This document shows, in pieces, positions 3,502 through 56,599 of a stretch of 64,000 nt of DNA. The stretch lies in the NCBI GenBank assembly GCA_030648835.1, contig JAUSGT010000001.1:133010-197009 (forward strand), in the 5' to 3' direction. Made by a program: the position numbers and the translations under genes. Numbering within the stretch: position 1 is the stretch's first letter; each line of letters starts with the position of its first letter. The notes below the pieces were generated by a model that did no database searches, had not been told where the DNA came from, and saw only the letters and a list, made by a program, of their open reading frames with translations. The stretch is from Candidatus Moraniibacteriota bacterium (GTDB lineage Bacteria > Patescibacteriota > Minisyncoccia > Moranbacterales > UBA1568).

Positions 3502-3565
3502 ACCACGCGCAGCCAGACTCGTCTGGGGAAGCGTCACTTGGAATGTCAAGGACGCTTTTTTCATT
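3493..3565 (+). terminator. compound terminator of three consecutive hairpins, the last followed by a T-run
   Basis: GCGCGTG aac CACGCGC; CCAGAC tcg GTCTGG; AAGCGTC ... GACGCTT then TTTTTTCATTTTTT. Confidence 0.55.
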
Positions 3566-3594
3566 TTTTCTTGCTTTGAAAGCATTTTTCATTT

Positions 3595-3658
3595 ACCCTG
3601 TGTAATACGACTTGCTCCGCAAGTTGTCATCGTACTTTAGTACGATATTACACAGGGT
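3595..3658 (+). promoter_or_regulatory. 13 bp perfect inverted repeat (ACCCTGTGTAATA / TATTACACAGGGT) around an inner palindrome, 15 nt upstream of the lepA start
   Basis: Read directly from the sequence. The inner palindrome is CGTACTTTAGTACG. Candidate operator or leader structure. Confidence 0.45.
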
Positions 3659-5877: not shown

Positions 5878-6008
5878 TATGCCCGGTAGTGAAACTTCGA
5901 CTGGGTATTCGTGTGAAATCAAACAATAGCAAGGGGTGTCAAAAATAAACATTAACTTAGACTTCCGCAGCATATAAAAAAGTTGTCGAAGTTCTACTAC
6001 CGGGTATG
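5878..6008. mobile_element. MITE-like element copy 1: TIR CCCGGTAGTGAAACTTCGAC (5882..5901) / GTCGAAGTTCTACTACCGGG (5985..6004), flanked by TATG at 5878..5881 and 6005..6008
   Basis: Near-perfect 20 bp terminal inverted repeat and 4 bp direct repeat, read directly. The right TATG contains the ATG of the yjbQ-like gene at 6006. The interior carries a GCATATAAA box. Confidence 0.7.
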
Positions 6009-6446
6009 AAAATTCACAAGGAGAGAATCGATCTCGAGAGCAAGACGCAGATCGAGTTTATGGATATCACGGACCGGGTGCAGGAAATCGTCGATCGTTC
6101 CGGTATTCGTGAAGGGCAGGCGCTCATTTATGTGCCACATACGACGATGGGCGTCGCCATCAACCACAACGAATCGATGCTCATTCAGGATTTTATGCGC
6201 ATTTTGTACAAAATGGTGCCGGTGGACGAGCACTATTCCCATGATCTTTTCGAATTGAGGCGTGCGTCCGGTTCCGACGGGCGGAGCAACGGCCACTCGC
6301 ATTGCAAAGCCATCCTTTTGGGCAACAGTGAAACGATCCCCGTAGAAAAGGGCAAGCTTCTTCTGACGGAGCGGCAGAATATCTTCGCCGTAGAATTCGA
6401 CGGTTCCCGCAAGCGTGATGTGTTTATTCAGGTAATCGGATTGTAA
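6006..6446 (+). CDS. YjbQ/UPF0047 family protein (secondary thiamine-phosphate synthase enzyme family)
   Basis: 146 aa. MKIHKERIDLESKTQIEFMDITDRVQEIV...VPHTTMGVAINHNE aligns from residue 1 with YjbQ-family N-termini, so the ATG at 6006 is the true start. Confidence 0.75.
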   Translation: MKIHKERIDLESKTQIEFMDITDRVQEIVDRSGIREGQALIYVPHTTMGVAINHNESMLIQDFMRILYKMVPVDEHYSHDLFELRRASGSDGRSNGHSHCKAILLGNSETIPVEKGKLLLTERQNIFAVEFDGSRKRDVFIQVIGL

Positions 6447-6461
6447 ATAATATTTCTTCCT

Positions 6462-6594
6462 TATGCCCGGCAGTGAAACTTCGACCGGGCATTTATAAAT
6501 ATCCGATAAGAGCGGGAATACTGCGAGGATAAGTATTAAATCCGAACTTCCAGGATTTCTACGGAAATTGTCGAAGTTCTACTGACCGGGTATG
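6462..6594. mobile_element. MITE-like element copy 2: TIRs 6466..6485 / 6570..6590, flanked by TATG at 6462..6465 and 6591..6594
   Basis: Same TIR family. The interior is homologous over its full length to copy 4 (GATAAGAGCGGGAA...GCGAGGATAA...TACGGAAAYTGTCGAAG). The right TATG supplies the pcm start at 6592. Confidence 0.7.
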
Positions 6595-9436: not shown

Positions 9437-9552
9437 TACCAAATATCTAATAATTAATAACATGAATTTTTATTGAGGAATTTGATATTGAGATATTCAT
9501 TAGGTATTAGAAATTAGATATTAGGAATTACAAATTCATATTTGTCATAATT

Positions 9553-13007: not shown

Positions 13008-13139
13008 TGTGCCCAGCAGTGAAACTTCGACCGAGTGCTCGTGTAGAATTGTAATTTGGAAGTGATATTATAAAAATAAGTATCTGATTTAAGTTTTTTT
13101 GGTTTTATGAAAATTGTCGAGGTTCTACTGCCGGGTGTG
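13008..13139. mobile_element. MITE-like element copy 3 (degenerate): TIR CCCAGCAGTGAAACTTCGAC (13012..13031) / GTCGAGGTTCTACTGCCGGG (13116..13135), flanked by TGTG at 13008..13011 and 13136..13139
   Basis: Same family with point substitutions. The flanking 4 bp direct repeat is TGTG here rather than TATG. The downstream gene starts 21 nt further on, at 13160. Confidence 0.6.
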
Positions 13140-25640: not shown

Positions 25641-25772
25641 TATGCCCGGTAGTGAAACTTCGACTGGGTATTTGAAAAAGATTTGATAAGAGCGGGAACG
25701 TCGCGAGGATAAACATTGATTTGAATTTCCAAGGTTTTTACGGAAACTGTCGAAGTTCTACTACCGGGTATG
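25641..25772. mobile_element. MITE-like element copy 4: TIRs 25645..25664 / 25749..25768, flanked by TATG at 25641..25644 and 25769..25772
   Basis: Begins 3 nt after the response-regulator stop. The right TATG supplies the aspS start at 25770. Interior homologous to copy 2. Confidence 0.7.
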
Positions 25773-29143: not shown

Positions 29144-29233
29144 GGAAAATAATACCTAATTTCTAATATCTAATTCCTAATGAATGTTTCAATATCTCAC
29201 TTGAAAATTTAGAAATTAGACATTTTTTGGAAA

Positions 29234-30097
29234 TTGGAAATTGGTAATTGGAAATTTGCAGGTACTCCTGCAGTGTCTATGGCTGTTCACAGGAAATTTA
29301 CCCAAACAAAACTCTCTCGGGCGCTGATTGTTTTCGGCATGCTTTGGATTGCCGTGGTGTTCGGTCCGGCGTGGCTTGTCGCTCCCGCTCGAACGGCTCT
29401 GATGACCGTGACGCTTCCGCTTCAGAAAATTTTCTCCGTGACGGCGTTTGAAATAGCGGATACATTTCATTTTTTCACCTCTATCGGTGAACTGAAAAGT
29501 GAGAATGAGAATTTGGAGAAAGAGCGTTTGCGACTTATGGCTCTGAATGCCAAGTTTTCCCTTGTAGACAAGGAGAATGATGAACTGCGCCGCGAACTTA
29601 GGCTTGTGCCGAGAAACAAGTTTTCTCTCAAGCCGGCTGAAGTTACCGGTCGCGACGTGTCCGGTCTTGGCAACTGGCTTTCCATCAACGAAGGATCACA
29701 GAGCGGAGTGCGAAAAGGGATGCCCGTCATCGTAGACGCGGGAATTCTTATCGGAAGAGTGACAGAAGTGTTTCCGGAAAGTGCTCGAGTGATGCTTCTC
29801 TCGAATCCGGAGAGTTTGATAAACGGCGTGGCGCTCGATACCGATGCGCGAGGAATTGTGAAAGGAGAGTATGGGTTGGGGCTTCTTTTTGGCATGGTGC
29901 TTCAGGCGGATACGCTCAAGGCTGGCGATACCGTGGTGACGTCGGGGTTGGGCGGAGATATGCCGAAAGGTTTGCTCATCGGGACGCTTCAGGAAACGCG
30001 TTTTTCCGACGACCGTTTATTTCAACAGGCATCACTTTCTTCACCGGTGAGATTTGACCGCTTGCGGTATGTCTTCGTTATTGAAAATATTCTGTAA
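29234..30097 (+). CDS. mreC: rod shape-determining protein MreC
   Basis: N-terminal TM helix, a coiled-coil (ENENLEKERLRLMALN) and a C-terminal beta domain. Sits directly after mreB. Confidence 0.7.
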   Translation: MEIGNWKFAGTPAVSMAVHRKFTQTKLSRALIVFGMLWIAVVFGPAWLVAPARTALMTVTLPLQKIFSVTAFEIADTFHFFTSIGELKSENENLEKERLRLMALNAKFSLVDKENDELRRELRLVPRNKFSLKPAEVTGRDVSGLGNWLSINEGSQSGVRKGMPVIVDAGILIGRVTEVFPESARVMLLSNPESLINGVALDTDARGIVKGEYGLGLLFGMVLQADTLKAGDTVVTSGLGGDMPKGLLIGTLQETRFSDDRLFQQASLSSPVRFDRLRYVFVIENIL

Positions 30098-30101
30098 GTA
30101 G

Positions 30102-30229
30102 TATGCCCGGTAGTAGAATTTCGACTGAGAGAAAAATACGATATTGAAACGAAAGATGTTTTAAAGAGTTATTATTAAAAATTTTATGCTGCATATAAAT
30201 ACATTGTCGAAATTTCACTACCGGGTATG
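30102..30229. mobile_element. MITE-like element copy 5 (opposite internal orientation): TIRs 30106..30125 / 30206..30225, flanked by TATG at 30102..30105 and 30226..30229
   Basis: The left arm has the GTAGAAT variant and the right arm the ATTTCAC variant, the reverse of copies 1-4. GCATATAAA box as in copy 1. Supplies the mreD ATG at 30227. Confidence 0.7.
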
Positions 30230-36494: not shown

Positions 36495-36570
36495 GGGTGC
36501 GTAGCTCAGTCGGTAGAGCAGTGGCCTTTTAAGCCAACGGTCGAGGGTTCGATTCCCCCCGCACCCACCA
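36495..36570 (+). tRNA. tRNA-Lys (anticodon UUU), CCA encoded
   Basis: Acceptor GGGTGCG/CGCACCC pairs perfectly. D-arm GCTCAGTCGGTAGAGC. Anticodon loop CTTTTAA. T-arm GAGGG TTCGATT CCCCC. Discriminator A plus CCA. Confidence 0.85.
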
Positions 36571-36576
36571 TAAAAC

Positions 36577-36612
36577 TAGGACTCCACTTTTGGAGTCCTT
36601 ACTTTTTACAGA
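36577..36612 (+). terminator. terminator after tRNA-Lys
   Basis: AGGACTCC acttt GGAGTCCT then TACTTTTTAC. Confidence 0.6.
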
Positions 36613-36624
36613 GAAGCTACAAGT

Positions 36625-36750
36625 GGGAATCGAAGGGCACGAGTAGGATGCGAGTAAGCGAGCATCCTGTGTGTAGTGCTCAGGCTCCGAGTCGGTCATC
36701 GACTCTGAGCTCAGACTCGAAGAGAGCGAGGAGGATTCCCCCCGCACCCA
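36625..36750 (+). ncRNA. structured tRNA-Lys-related RNA module R1 (about 126 nt)
   Basis: Ends in GAGGAGGATTCCCCCCGCACCCA, mimicking the tRNA-Lys T-arm and 3' acceptor strand. Internal stems AGGATGC/GCATCCT, GAGTCG/CGACTC and the TGAGCTCA palindrome. The 5' GGGCAC pairs with the internal GTGCTC. Confidence 0.4.
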
Positions 36751-36814
36751 CTATAGGATAACAATAGATAACAAGAACTCCCGAACGGGAAGTTTTTGCT
36801 TTATAAAGAATTGC

Positions 36815-36947
36815 GGGGAATCGAAGGGTGCGAGTAGAATGTGAGCAAGCGAACATTCTGTGTGTAGCACCCAGGCTCCGAGTCGGTCATCGACTCTGAG
36901 CTCAGACTCGAAGAGAGCGAGGAGGATTCCCCCCCCCGCACCCACCA
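36815..36947 (+). ncRNA. structured tRNA-Lys-related RNA module R2 (about 133 nt, ends in CCA), followed by a hairpin terminator
   Basis: Co-linear with R1. Compensatory substitutions keep both stems intact (AGAATGT/ACATTCT; GGGTGC/GCACCC). The 3' end is CGCACCCACCA, identical to the tRNA-Lys 3' end. Terminator at 36950..36990. Confidence 0.4.
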
Positions 36948-36949
36948 AA

Positions 36950-36990
36950 TAAGTACCTTTTCCGTTTCGGAGAGGGTACTTTGTTTTTCT
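36950..36990 (+). terminator. terminator after module R2
   Basis: AAGTACC ...17 nt loop... GGTACTT followed by TGTTTTTCTTTC. Confidence 0.55.
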
Positions 36991-44071: not shown

Positions 44072-44974
44072 ATGCGCACATTACTAATGTTAATCGTTGT
44101 TGCTTTACTTTCGGCATGCGCGACGCTTGGTGGCAACACCATGAATCTCGCGGCCGAAGATGGGAAAAAACAAGCGGTGTCAATCGACCCGATTGCTTTT
44201 ACCGGGGTGCAAATGACCCCGGCGATTCAGAGCGGGAAGTACAAAGCATATCTCGCAAGCTTCCCGGAAGAATTCTTTTCCGAGTTTCATCCGTTGCGCT
44301 TTCGCTACAACGCGATCGCGTACGGAAAGGATTCCGGCAAGGAATATCCGGCGCAGGCCATCTATGCCGGGTACGCCCAGTGCGCGTTGCGACTGGTTCT
44401 CATCGTCGAGGGCGACGTGAATGAACCAATTGTTGGCGCGTTCGTAACGACCCGTTTCACGCGGGTGTTCAATCTTCACGGCGAAGAAATCAGCGTGAAG
44501 ACTCCGGAGAAACTGATTTCCGACGCGAAGTATCGCAAGGAGGTTGTTCTTTCCGGTGGGACACTGACGAGCAAGCTGAAAGGTATACCTGTTTTGGGTA
44601 AGAGCGGGATGCAGGAAACATTCGCCTCGTGGAATACGGTGCGAGTGCCAGCCCTCGCGTATGAGATTCGTACGCCGCTTTCCGAAAGACTCGTGAAAAC
44701 GGTGGCGCGCGAGAATCCCGAGCTGAACTTTTCCGAGAAGCTGGTCGGTAACGGCCGTTTCGGAATCAGTCTCAGCTGGTTCGGAATAGCTGCGGGAGCT
44801 GTAGCTGACGTTTTTACGGCAGCCAATGCTCCGAGCAAGGGCTGGGACGAACAGAGTGAGCTCAAGCGTGGCCAGCAGGGCATGATTGCGCGCGTCATAA
44901 AAGCTCAGTACGATGGCGCGATCCGTGCAGGAATGACCTGTACCGCCTCGGACATCAGGCGAGCGGGGTACTGA
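44072..44974 (+). CDS. lipoprotein (lipobox LLSAC), hypothetical, high GC
   Basis: MRTLLMLIVVALLSACATLGG. 300 aa. SD (AGGAGG). Confidence 0.5.
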   Translation: MRTLLMLIVVALLSACATLGGNTMNLAAEDGKKQAVSIDPIAFTGVQMTPAIQSGKYKAYLASFPEEFFSEFHPLRFRYNAIAYGKDSGKEYPAQAIYAGYAQCALRLVLIVEGDVNEPIVGAFVTTRFTRVFNLHGEEISVKTPEKLISDAKYRKEVVLSGGTLTSKLKGIPVLGKSGMQETFASWNTVRVPALAYEIRTPLSERLVKTVARENPELNFSEKLVGNGRFGISLSWFGIAAGAVADVFTAANAPSKGWDEQSELKRGQQGMIARVIKAQYDGAIRAGMTCTASDIRRAGY

Positions 44975-44987
44975 AGCAGGCGGCAAG

Positions 44988-45031
44988 GCGCGGATTTTCT
45001 GGAACGTTCAGGGAATCCGCGCAGTTTTTTT
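44988..45031 (+). terminator. rho-independent terminator
   Basis: GCGCGGATT ...loop... AATCCGCGC followed by AGTTTTTTT. Confidence 0.7.
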
Positions 45032-45053: not shown

Positions 45054-45083
45054 TTGAACGCTTACGAACGGGTGAGGTATAAT
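45054..45083 (+). promoter_or_regulatory. sigma70-like promoter TTGAAC-N18-TATAAT, lying just upstream of MITE copy 6
   Basis: Read directly. The predicted transcription start falls about 3-5 nt before the element's left TATG. Confidence 0.55.
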
Positions 45084-45092
45084 GAACATACG

Positions 45093-45230
45093 TATGCCCG
45101 GTAGTAGAACTTCGACCGAGCATTGAAAGAAATTATGATGAAGCATAAGAGGGTTGTAAAATAAAAGTATATTTGGTTTTGATTACTGTAGTTTTTGTAT
45201 TAAATTGTCGAAGTTTCACTACCGGGTATG
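45093..45230. mobile_element. MITE-like element copy 6: TIRs 45097..45116 / 45207..45226, flanked by TATG at 45093..45096 and 45227..45230
   Basis: Same TIRs, in the orientation of copy 5. Lies between a promoter and the ATG at 45228 of the O-antigen-ligase-like gene, i.e. inside the predicted 5' UTR. Confidence 0.7.
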
Positions 45231-56482: not shown

Positions 56483-56599
56483 TATCTAATCAATACTTCA
56501 ATGCTTCAATATAAAATAATCTTGTCAAGATATTAAAAAATTAGACTTTGGAAATTAGATATTCATTAGGTATTAGAAATTAGGTATTAGATATTTACT

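Follow-up and report, generated by a model that had tools for sequence, protein, structure and literature searches.

Introduction

Transposable elements of the miniature inverted-repeat type (MITEs) and co-transcribed MITE hairpins are already known. The closest described counterpart of the family reported here is the Correia element of Neisseria (CREE/NEMIS), likewise a MITE of 100–155 bp with long terminal inverted repeats (TIRs) that is present in many copies, often lies just upstream of genes and is co-transcribed with them. The TIR hairpins of Correia elements in mRNA are cleaved by RNase III (reviewed in PMC10969869), which changes expression, whereas the stem discussed below is a predicted one; in that 2024 review, which covers prokaryotic MITEs, the term 'start codon' does not occur (PMC10969869). 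Here we analyze a 64,000-nt stretch of a Candidatus Moranbacteria metagenome-assembled genome (MAG; assembly GCA_030648835.1, contig JAUSGT010000001.1, positions 133,010–197,009 of the forward strand), hereafter the window, which holds seven copies of a short inverted-repeat element. The sixth, copy 6, lies directly before a cell-envelope gene, which encodes a Wzy_C protein of the O-antigen ligase family. It is a non-autonomous transposable element with 20-bp TIRs (CCCGGTAGTRRAACTTCGAC) and a variable interior of ~90 bp, and has no coding capacity.

An earlier note, made from the sequence of the window alone, had recognized copy 6 as a MITE and proposed that it forms the whole leader of the Wzy_C mRNA. 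The central point that it overlooked, as comparison with orthologous loci indicates, is that the element was inserted on the start codon itself, in a gene that was formerly leaderless or nearly so. The literature searched contained no description of the element, its arm sequences, a duplication of TATG or MITEs specific to start codons; nor does it describe any family that lands on and duplicates start codons across a bacterial superphylum. All statements about function below rest on sequence and on thermodynamic prediction.

Copy 6 and its orthologous loci

The gene upstream of copy 6 (44072–44974) ends at 44974 and is followed by an intrinsic terminator (44988–45031), composed of a 16-bp stem with a 3-nt loop (hairpin 44988–45022) and a T-run. 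Next comes a putative sigma-70-type promoter (45054–45083) with a −35 element TTGAAC (45054–45059), an 18-nt spacer and a −10 element TATAAT (45078–45083), from which transcription is predicted to start at ~45090. Both signals are present where the earlier note had placed them, on the plus strand like all features of this locus. The promoter-like site matches the consensus at 10 of 12 positions and is the best of five such sites in 2.5 kb, a count that by itself is within chance (2.2 ± 1.5 in shuffles). The element fills the gap from this site to the Wzy_C start codon. It is bounded on the left by TATG (45093–45096), in which an ATG begins at 45094, 10 nt past the −10 hexamer, and comprises the left TIR (CCCGGTAGTAGAACTTCGAC, 20 nt, 45097–45116), a 90-nt AT-rich interior that varies between copies (45117–45206) and the right TIR (GTCGAAGTTTCACTACCGGG, 45207–45226), which pairs with the left arm except for a conserved tandem of G·U plus A·C at positions 10–11. 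A second TATG (45227–45230) closes the element, and its ATG (45228–45230) is the first start codon of the 494-aa Wzy_C open reading frame (ORF; 45228–46712). The element is thus 130 bp long (45097–45226), or 134 bp with one copy of the duplication, not 135 nt as had been thought, and the ATG stands next to the right arm rather than inside it.

Orthologues of the Wzy_C locus (L114–L117) were fetched through the protein, which makes the sample unbiased as to the element; these and a second protein-anchored set (L238–L242) are the only unbiased sample in this work. In L115 (77% protein identity), the same terminator and the same TTGAAC-N18-TATAAT are followed by GTGAATACA-TATG-GATTTTGAT, with a single TATG 9 nt past the same −10 hexamer and no element. 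In L116 (76% identity; 86% identical to L115), the promoter is followed by TATG, an element oriented as in the window and a further TATG, and this element matches copy 6 at 39 of 40 arm positions and over ~77% of the interior. In L114 (89% identity), the start codon is occupied by a member of another subfamily (arms CCCGGTGGGACAACTTCAA and CCCGGTGGTACTACTTCAA), which is likewise bounded by TATGs. No element is present in L117 (72% identity), which reads TATAAT-GAAAGG-TATG, with TATAAT ending 7 nt before the A of ATG. Filled and empty Wzy_C sites differ by exactly the element plus 4 bp, and the N-termini of the orthologues, with or without the element, begin at the Met encoded by 45228–45230.

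Judged from these alignments, copy 6 is a true insertion with a 4-bp target duplication consisting of T plus the start codon, which was thereby duplicated; the integration appears to have involved a staggered cut of 4 bp at the Wzy_C start codon, in the sequence T-ATG. The left copy of the duplication, with ATG 45094–45096, would mark the original start-codon position behind the promoter, as the empty site in L115 indicates, and the right copy holds the working start codon. The proposed placement of the element between promoter and start codon is therefore borne out, with promoter hexamers that are conserved in the orthologues. Both hexamers are identical in the window, L115 and L116, while the window and L115 differ at 7 of 18 positions of the spacer and at 4 of 9 downstream, and this invariance is the best available evidence for a real promoter; L115, L116 and L117 also share the terminator hairpin and its T-run. 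Because the −10 hexamer of the empty state ends 10 nt before the A of ATG, the ancestral Wzy_C mRNA was probably leaderless or had a leader of 3–5 nt without a Shine-Dalgarno (SD) motif.

The start codon of the aspartate-tRNA ligase (AspRS) gene carries another copy in the window, copy 4. Of its orthologues, also retrieved via the protein, L239 (88% identity) retains only AAGTTCTACTA of the right arm before the ATG, and L238 (94% identity) has a 35-nt spacer without arms that is probably a deletion remnant; more distant orthologues have no element.

Two further observations concern these loci. The sister subfamily with arms CCCGGTGGGACAACTTCAA/CCCGGTGGTACTACTTCAA and TATG/CATA flanks is found at L114 5–128, L044 from 5964 and L101 from 7097. 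L116 contains an extra insertion of ~75 nt (~1245–1320) between the terminator and the −35 element of the Wzy promoter, absent from the window and from L115; an inverted repeat, TGTCTCATAGT...ACTATGAGACA, lies within this insertion, which may represent a further small palindromic element.

A family of elements at start codons

Scans with an arm pattern returned 112 loci in species-representative genomes and at least 120 loci in metagenomes. Among the matches listed, there are 153 unique copies from genomes of Patescibacteria (the candidate phyla radiation, CPR, a group of ultra-small bacteria) and metagenomes; gene starts in these loci were set by our own ORF rules and not by curated annotation. 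In the window, the pattern has 13 matches, which correspond to the seven copies, and none in 100 shuffles. Arms in pairs are almost confined to Patescibacteria (Moran-, Sacchari-, Parcu-, Uhr-, Buchanan-, Lipton-, Jorgensen-, Portnoy- and Sungbacteria), with the addition of some TPA MAGs that bear other labels. Outside the CPR, genomes with a single arm match (Halobacteriales, Gemmatimonadota, Flagellimonas and others) were dismissed as chance cases, as none has a partner arm; ~70 chance matches to the arm pattern are estimated in 596 Gb. Viral contigs scanned with the same pattern gave no match.

The elements are 65–227 bp long, with a median of 126 bp, and 111 of the 153 copies have identical 4-nt flanks: TATG in 97, CATG in 5, TGTG in 3, and TCAA, ATGA, TATA, CAAG, CAAA and AAAA in one each, so that the duplications include the non-palindromic TCAA, CAAG, CAAA and ATGA. 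Beyond TATG we found no extended target motif save a weak preference for C at +4. The orientation relative to the gene is random (60 to 46).

The start codon lies inside the duplication and opens an ORF of at least 60 codons in 110 of the 153 copies (72%). A further ~16 copies either lie no more than 25 nt from an ORF start or escaped this count because of a 1-nt indel in an arm (copy 2 of the window among them), which brings the total to ~82%. When empty sites were reconstructed for the first 66 copies, 30 proved to open an ORF of at least 60 codons as its first in-frame start, as opposed to 9.5% of 4260 control TATG sites (p = 4e-14). A −10-like hexamer stands 6–10 nt before the left ATG in 21 of 51 copies and in 28 of 187 control TATG starts (p = 1.3e-4); in the larger set, such a box is present in 45 of the 110 start-codon copies (41%). 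In 41–46% of copies the duplication occupies positions −1 to +3 of a predicted leaderless start. SD-like motifs are found in only 8 of the 110 start-codon copies.

Leaderless or SD-less initiation looks common in the genome of the window, to judge by its sequence. At 28 starts among the ~52 predicted window genes, the ATG is preceded by T; a clear SD motif is seen in a minority of window genes only, and several have a −10-like hexamer 6–10 nt upstream.

Mobility and decay

The family has TIRs, a target duplication of fixed length and a small size without a transposase gene, and there is evidence for its transposition, which together make it a MITE. The empty orthologous site and near-identical copies at unrelated loci uphold the earlier description of a mobile element of this type. 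Two contigs of one MAG (L049 and L072) carry copies identical at 123 of 124 positions with unrelated flanks, both on start codons behind −10-like boxes, and at L045 7439–7864 at least four elements stand head to tail in a tandem array, joined via shared TATGs and reaching the contig end. By these sequence criteria, the family is or recently was mobile. Decay is visible as well: L086, L158 and L239 hold deletion remnants, and at L035 (~3560–3645, minus strand) a 781-aa ORF has a partnerless solo arm joined in frame to its 5′ end. Taken together, the loci compared indicate that the element is gained, lost cleanly (L115), replaced (L114) and eroded, and hence that it is dispensable.

Distant arm pairs and solo arms were considered as parts of an autonomous partner; they proved to be separate MITEs, deletion remnants or, at L035, the ORF-fused arm. 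The predicted N-terminus there, MPGSETST..., derives from the duplicated ATG plus the arm and may be an exaptation as coding sequence.

Several other loci deserve mention. L118 (10907–11036), L131 (7093–7222) and L223 (minus strand) share a block of promoter, element and gene start in which the element is 96–100% identical; the coding sequence that follows is only ~85–90% identical and the upstream genes are unrelated, a pattern that suggests recombination tracts or transfer of a gene start together with its element. L153 has two copies, at 2667–2803 and ~3509–3640, on start codons of minus-strand genes. Read from their translations, these genes are a thioredoxin-like ORF with a WCGPC motif and the first gene of a pair resembling a ribbon-helix-helix antitoxin and a PIN-domain toxin, so that the element looks to precede a toxin-antitoxin operon. 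Contigs often begin or end inside an arm (e.g. L052, L061, L065, L073, L076 and L114), and further copies may be hidden there.

A predicted stem that buries the start codon

The 20-bp arms are present in all seven window copies and in 165 further distinct copies and are nearly invariant across phyla, an apparent conservation that is inflated by the ascertainment of copies via conserved arms. Where the arms do change, they change together: double same-base changes number 32, against ~1 expected, and position 20 is C/C, A/A or T/T in 154 of 165 copies. Positions 10–11 are the exception, differing between the arms in 155 of 165 copies, always as G·U beside A·C. The interior is free to vary, the window copies being ~60–76% alike, and the only reading frames within the element are short, variable upstream ORFs (uORFs). 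Family-wide, the interior by itself is no more stable when folded than shuffled sequence (mean z −0.45, median −0.06), so the idea of a whole-element palindrome was rejected and the stem assigned to the arms only. A search of the window in Rfam gave only two tRNA matches at the gathering score and, at E-values up to 10, only chance matches to long miRNA-precursor hairpins.

Folding of 45088–45250 with ViennaRNA gave −43.9 kcal/mol (z = −4.0). In the predicted structure, the arm helix is extended by the two UAUG copies through U·G, A-U, U-A and G·U pairs, and the three nucleotides of the working AUG have unpaired probabilities of 0.01, 0.03 and 0.19. The AUG is thus predicted to be paired, as the earlier note had it, with the left copy of the duplication as its partner and not with the left arm. 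The same holds in the family, where the right AUG has a median unpaired probability of 0.07 with the element (108 copies) versus 0.63 at reconstructed empty sites. The sense fold exceeds the antisense fold in stability by 2.8 kcal/mol (p = 0.002), a difference that is confounded by strong GC skew of the coding strand and uninformative.

If transcription starts at the predicted position, ~7 nt past the −10 hexamer (~45090), the element would make up essentially the entire leader, as had been proposed; that it must be part of the mRNA follows only from this predicted start. Computationally, then, the picture of a whole-leader element that pairs the AUG holds, and it holds family-wide. Copy 6 had been singled out as the clearest case of an element within an mRNA. 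Its placement on a start codon is the rule of the family rather than a peculiarity of this copy, and copies 4, 5 and 7, if read as parts of operon transcripts, would be in mRNA equally surely. A second AUG (45094), which the earlier note did not mention, opens an incidental uORF of 10 codons that runs from the left ATG through the left arm (45094–45126; MPGSRTSTEH, then stop).

Six of the ~52 window genes have the element on their start, that for AspRS among them, and because of this something must open the stem, if it forms as predicted.

A proposed mechanism

On balance, we think that the family is best explained as a co-transcribed, AUG-masking MITE associated with start codons or transcription start sites, an account that includes an RNase step and an integration bias and that we hold, with some reserve, to be probably right. 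At copy 6, transcription from the conserved promoter would start at ~45090 and yield ACG-UAUG followed by the stem, with the element as the entire leader of ~138 nt. The arms and the wobble-paired UAUG copies would form a stem of ~24 bp, 0–4 nt from the 5′ end, that buries both AUGs, and expression of Wzy_C would then require the stem to open. As happens with the hairpins of Correia elements, a double-strand-specific RNase of the RNase III type could cut the arm duplex and leave an mRNA with a short unstructured leader before the right AUG, in which case the element would act as a post-transcriptional gate; the conserved central G·U/A·C tandem may mark the cut. Opening by RNase III-type cleavage is our favoured guess, made with low confidence, and the alternatives for the stem are kinetic or helicase-driven opening or tolerated reduced expression.

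The start-codon bias would arise by integration into the easily melted promoter/+1 region, followed by purifying selection against insertions that do not regenerate an ATG. A pyrimidine at −1 and a purine at +1 are the usual start-site preference, and Y(−1)R(+1)TG, in particular T(−1)A(+1)TG behind a −10 box, resembles the +1 of a leaderless gene, which suggests integration into melted DNA. In our view this is the most likely origin of the bias. A purely selective filter is also possible, given that only an insertion on an ATG regenerates an ATG, but it does not explain why there are few copies at other intergenic TATG sites or why TATA-flanked copies are nearly absent.

Several results weigh against the proposal. 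In 41 of the 110 start-codon copies (~37%), a co-directional ORF ends no more than 40 nt upstream; among them are copies 4, 5 and 7 of the window, located 3–5 nt past the upstream stop codon. Such operon-internal junction copies have no obvious promoter and are unexplained by promoter/+1 targeting, and this third of the copies misfits integration into melted DNA. Mismatches between the arms are G·U in 18 and A·C in 20 cases, without bias, and since the two are equally frequent, selection on an RNA stem and selection on two identical protein-binding ends are indistinguishable; the paired arm changes could equally reflect recognition of two identical ends by a transposase. Close relatives have lost the element or keep remnants of it at the Wzy and AspRS starts, which fits a tolerated parasite equally well. 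Finally, in 236 loci, with stretches of up to ~15 kb around the arm matches, no arm pair 0.4–4 kb apart encloses a transposase, so that, with no autonomous element or transposase found, the integration chemistry is deduced from the inverted repeats and the duplication only.

Alternative explanations

The alternative that fares best is that the element is tolerated selfish DNA without a role, whose transposase cuts YATR/TATG anywhere and which, in these compact genomes, survives only where the insertion regenerates an ATG, with ribosomes loading co-transcriptionally or the stem breathing, and with neither processing nor regulation. We regard this as a real though less probable possibility. It accommodates the loss of the element or its reduction to remnants in close relatives that kept the gene, an interior that is unconstrained and unstructured, a target motif limited to TATG and a left ATG whose decay keeps pace with that of the unconstrained T at −1. 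With 6 of 28 TATG start codons in the window (21%) occupied and 22 free, chance would also be expected to bring more than one hit on a given site. The window, however, has 53 free intergenic TATG/CATA sites that are not starts, in addition to 369 coding ones, and yet only one of the seven copies, copy 3, with its TGTG flanks, is a non-start insertion; landing between a terminator and a promoter ought to do no more harm. TATA flanks occur in 1 of 111 copies although TA is the favoured half-site. The arms of the orthologous copy in L116 remain 39/40 identical to those of copy 6 while the interior is down to 77%. Moreover, an AUG-burying stem of the predicted kind on ~12% of genes, including that for AspRS, would be costly unless resolved.

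At the other extreme, the masking mechanism could be extended into a more speculative picture, which we consider improbable but worth stating: a CPR-wide mobile hairpin would seek the +1 or start codon of leaderless, SD-less genes, guided by the initiation complex as Ty3 is, and lock the AUG in a 5′-terminal stem, so that about a tenth of genes would depend on a common unmasking by a double-strand RNase or helicase, a genome-wide post-transcriptional switch built by a transposon.

Unmasking might instead be the work of the uORF, with ribosomes starting at the left AUG by the native signals, melting the stem as they translate through the left arm and thereby exposing the right AUG. The site bias would follow, since the ATG is duplicated only by an insertion exactly on it; in either orientation the arm can be read from the left ATG without a stop (MPGSETST or MPGSRTST), and the solo arm at L035 continues in frame into the 5′ end of an ORF. 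The left ATG, however, is not conserved: its three positions have 7, 7 and 5 mismatches, against 12 at the unconstrained T at −1. The uORF stops are distributed as in a control frame, at a median of 66 nt before the right AUG and within 20 nt of it in only 4 of 98 cases, and the left AUG is itself predicted to be paired. Termination-reinitiation or uORF coupling was rejected on these grounds, and we consider uORF-mediated unmasking as a whole unlikely.

A start of transcription within the element would remove the need for unmasking altogether. From an internal promoter such as TCGACC-N16-TATGAT (45112–45139, plus strand; 9 of 12 consensus positions), the leader would be the right half of the element only, the hairpin would never form and the AUG would be free. 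The stretch TTATGATGAAG is conserved between copy 6 and L116, and Correia elements do carry promoters (PMC10969869). Against this, −10-like hexamers 16–18 nt past the arm-internal TCGACN number 10 in 106 copies, where ~8 are expected, and ahead of the right arm such hexamers (TANNNT) show no enrichment at any one distance. The upstream site is the better one (10 of 12), is conserved in the empty-site orthologue and is the sole candidate there, and the element occurs in both orientations with equal frequency. For lack of positional enrichment, an internal or outward promoter was rejected in both the sense and the mirror orientation, and a role for the site at 45112–45139 seems quite unlikely.

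Slightly less probable again is mobilization as single-stranded DNA by an HUH/RAYT-type enzyme, as for REPINs and IS200/IS605 derivatives, with insertion 3′ of TATG by an element that brings its own TATG at the right end, so that the duplication would be only apparent. The conserved mid-stem mismatch recalls hairpins read by HUH enzymes, the arms contain GTAG, which we take to be the REP head motif, and no DDE partner was found among the loci scanned. The two flanks, though, co-vary in the 14 non-TATG copies (CATG, TGTG, TCAA, CAAG, CAAA, ATGA, TATA and AAAA), the empty site has exactly one TATG, the orientation to the target is random (60 to 46) and the individual arms, read from the sequence, are not self-palindromic. 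Membership in the REPIN/RAYT or IS200/IS605 groups was rejected on the flank co-variation, the orientation and the arms.

That the element is an immobile, host-encoded conserved leader RNA or operator before many genes, as its position at gene starts and its near-invariant arms across CPR phyla might suggest, is contradicted by orthologous sites that differ by exactly the element plus 4 bp and scarcely worth entertaining given the 123/124-identical copies at unrelated loci, the TATG-sharing tandem arrays (L045), the two orientations, the lack of an Rfam match and the unrelated functions of the downstream genes.

Other copies and features of the window

Copies 1–5 and 7 are all given in plus-strand coordinates, and the genes downstream of the window copies are functionally unrelated. 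Five of these six are flanked by TATG on both sides, and the right ATG starts a gene. Copy 1 (5878–6008) precedes an UPF0047 gene (ATG at 6006); copy 2 (6462–6594), which has a 1-nt insertion in its right arm, a PCMT gene (6592); copy 4 (25641–25772) the AspRS gene (25770), with an upstream ORF that stops 3 nt before the left TATG; copy 5 (30102–30229), of the inverted orientation class, a 183-aa ORF (30227); and copy 7 (54125–54259) a DUF4012 gene (54257), with an upstream ORF that stops 2 nt before the left TATG. Copy 3 (13008–13139) is the most diverged; it has TGTG flanks and lies 20 nt upstream of an ATG (13160), directly before the extended −10-like motif TGGTAGAAT.

The right flank of copy 3, TGTG-GTAGAAT, forms the extended −10-like TGnTAGAAT 13 nt before the ATG (13160) of a PD-(D/E)XK nuclease gene, and this copy may have landed in or just before a promoter. 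Copies 1 and 2 (5878–6594), of the same orientation class and 584 nt apart, bracket the UPF0047 gene (6006–6446), each standing on a start codon, in an arrangement that resembles a composite able to move the enclosed gene.

Downstream of the Wzy_C gene, and overlapping its 3′ end, is a gene for a GT4 glycosyltransferase (46709–47893, plus strand). Another repeat family in the window, unrelated to the element, consists of AT-rich, tandem-like GAAATTAG/GATATTAGG units at 9478–9543, 29205–29256 and 56544–56595, each directly upstream of a gene start (9553, 29234 and 56600). A tRNA-Lys gene (36495–36570) is followed by a 119-nt direct repeat (36625–36743 and 36816–36934, 92% identical), and a 51-nt segment starting CCCCCCGCACCCACCA, which resembles a tRNA 3′ end, is present in two copies (36555–36605 and 36932–36982); the repeats in 36495–36982 may be attachment-site duplications of an integrated element.

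Comparison with known systems

If the proposed mechanism is true, the family bears on how a DNA transposon finds start codons or transcription start sites, on how Patescibacteria translate SD-less genes with an AUG that, by prediction, lies inside a ~24-bp stem, and on whether the host uses the shared stem as a common regulatory handle. The repeats also break short-read assemblies and can mislead start-codon calling and the annotation of 5′ untranslated regions in CPR genomes.

The ends of the element offer a lead to the missing transposase. IS1380 and piggyBac elements have ends starting with CC and 4-bp target duplications, and piggyBac excises without a footprint, restoring its target, TTAA. 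The CC ends and the 4-bp duplication of the present family and the clean empty site of L115 are compatible with a DDE enzyme of this type, whereas the target here is TATG and not TTAA; an IS1380/piggyBac-like enzyme is a lead only.

As short, abundant, hairpin-forming intergenic repeats that are transcribed with their neighbours, the elements resemble ERIC/IRU, RUP, BOX and REPIN sequences. The latter, however, lie mostly at 3′ ends or between genes, and REPINs are moved by RAYT and make no target duplication; to our knowledge, none of these has been reported on start codons. Rickettsia palindromic elements are also mobile palindromic elements of 100–150 bp that occupy reduced genomes and are tolerated at seemingly harmful positions. 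They insert in frame within coding sequences and are translated, whereas the present element stays outside the ORF by duplicating the ATG.

For the predicted RNA, the nearest parallels are 5′-terminal stem-loops that stabilize mRNAs, such as the ompA leader, and hairpins that bridge split ribosome-binding sites, as in T4 genes 38 and 25. The stem predicted here likewise lies 0–4 nt from the 5′ end, with a hairpin between the upstream signals and the AUG. Those hairpins are short and locus-specific and leave the AUG free, whereas here the AUG is predicted to be paired and there is no SD motif. For the choice of site, Ty3, which integrates a few nucleotides from the RNA polymerase III transcription start, would be a functional analogue of a family with 41–46% of its copies at a predicted leaderless start. 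Ty3 is, however, a eukaryotic long-terminal-repeat retrotransposon tethered by TFIIIB, while no tethering factor is known for the present family and many of its copies stand at operon-internal starts.

Correia elements, finally, duplicate TA on insertion. They have a conserved interior with an IHF site and strong outward promoters, show no start-codon specificity and are confined to one genus. We rejected membership in the Correia/CREE group because the duplication is 4 bp long, the arm sequence differs and −10-like hexamers show no enrichment by position. In contrast to Correia elements, the family described here has a different arm sequence, a free interior and no conserved promoter, extends across the Patescibacteria and makes its 4-bp TATG duplication on the start codon.

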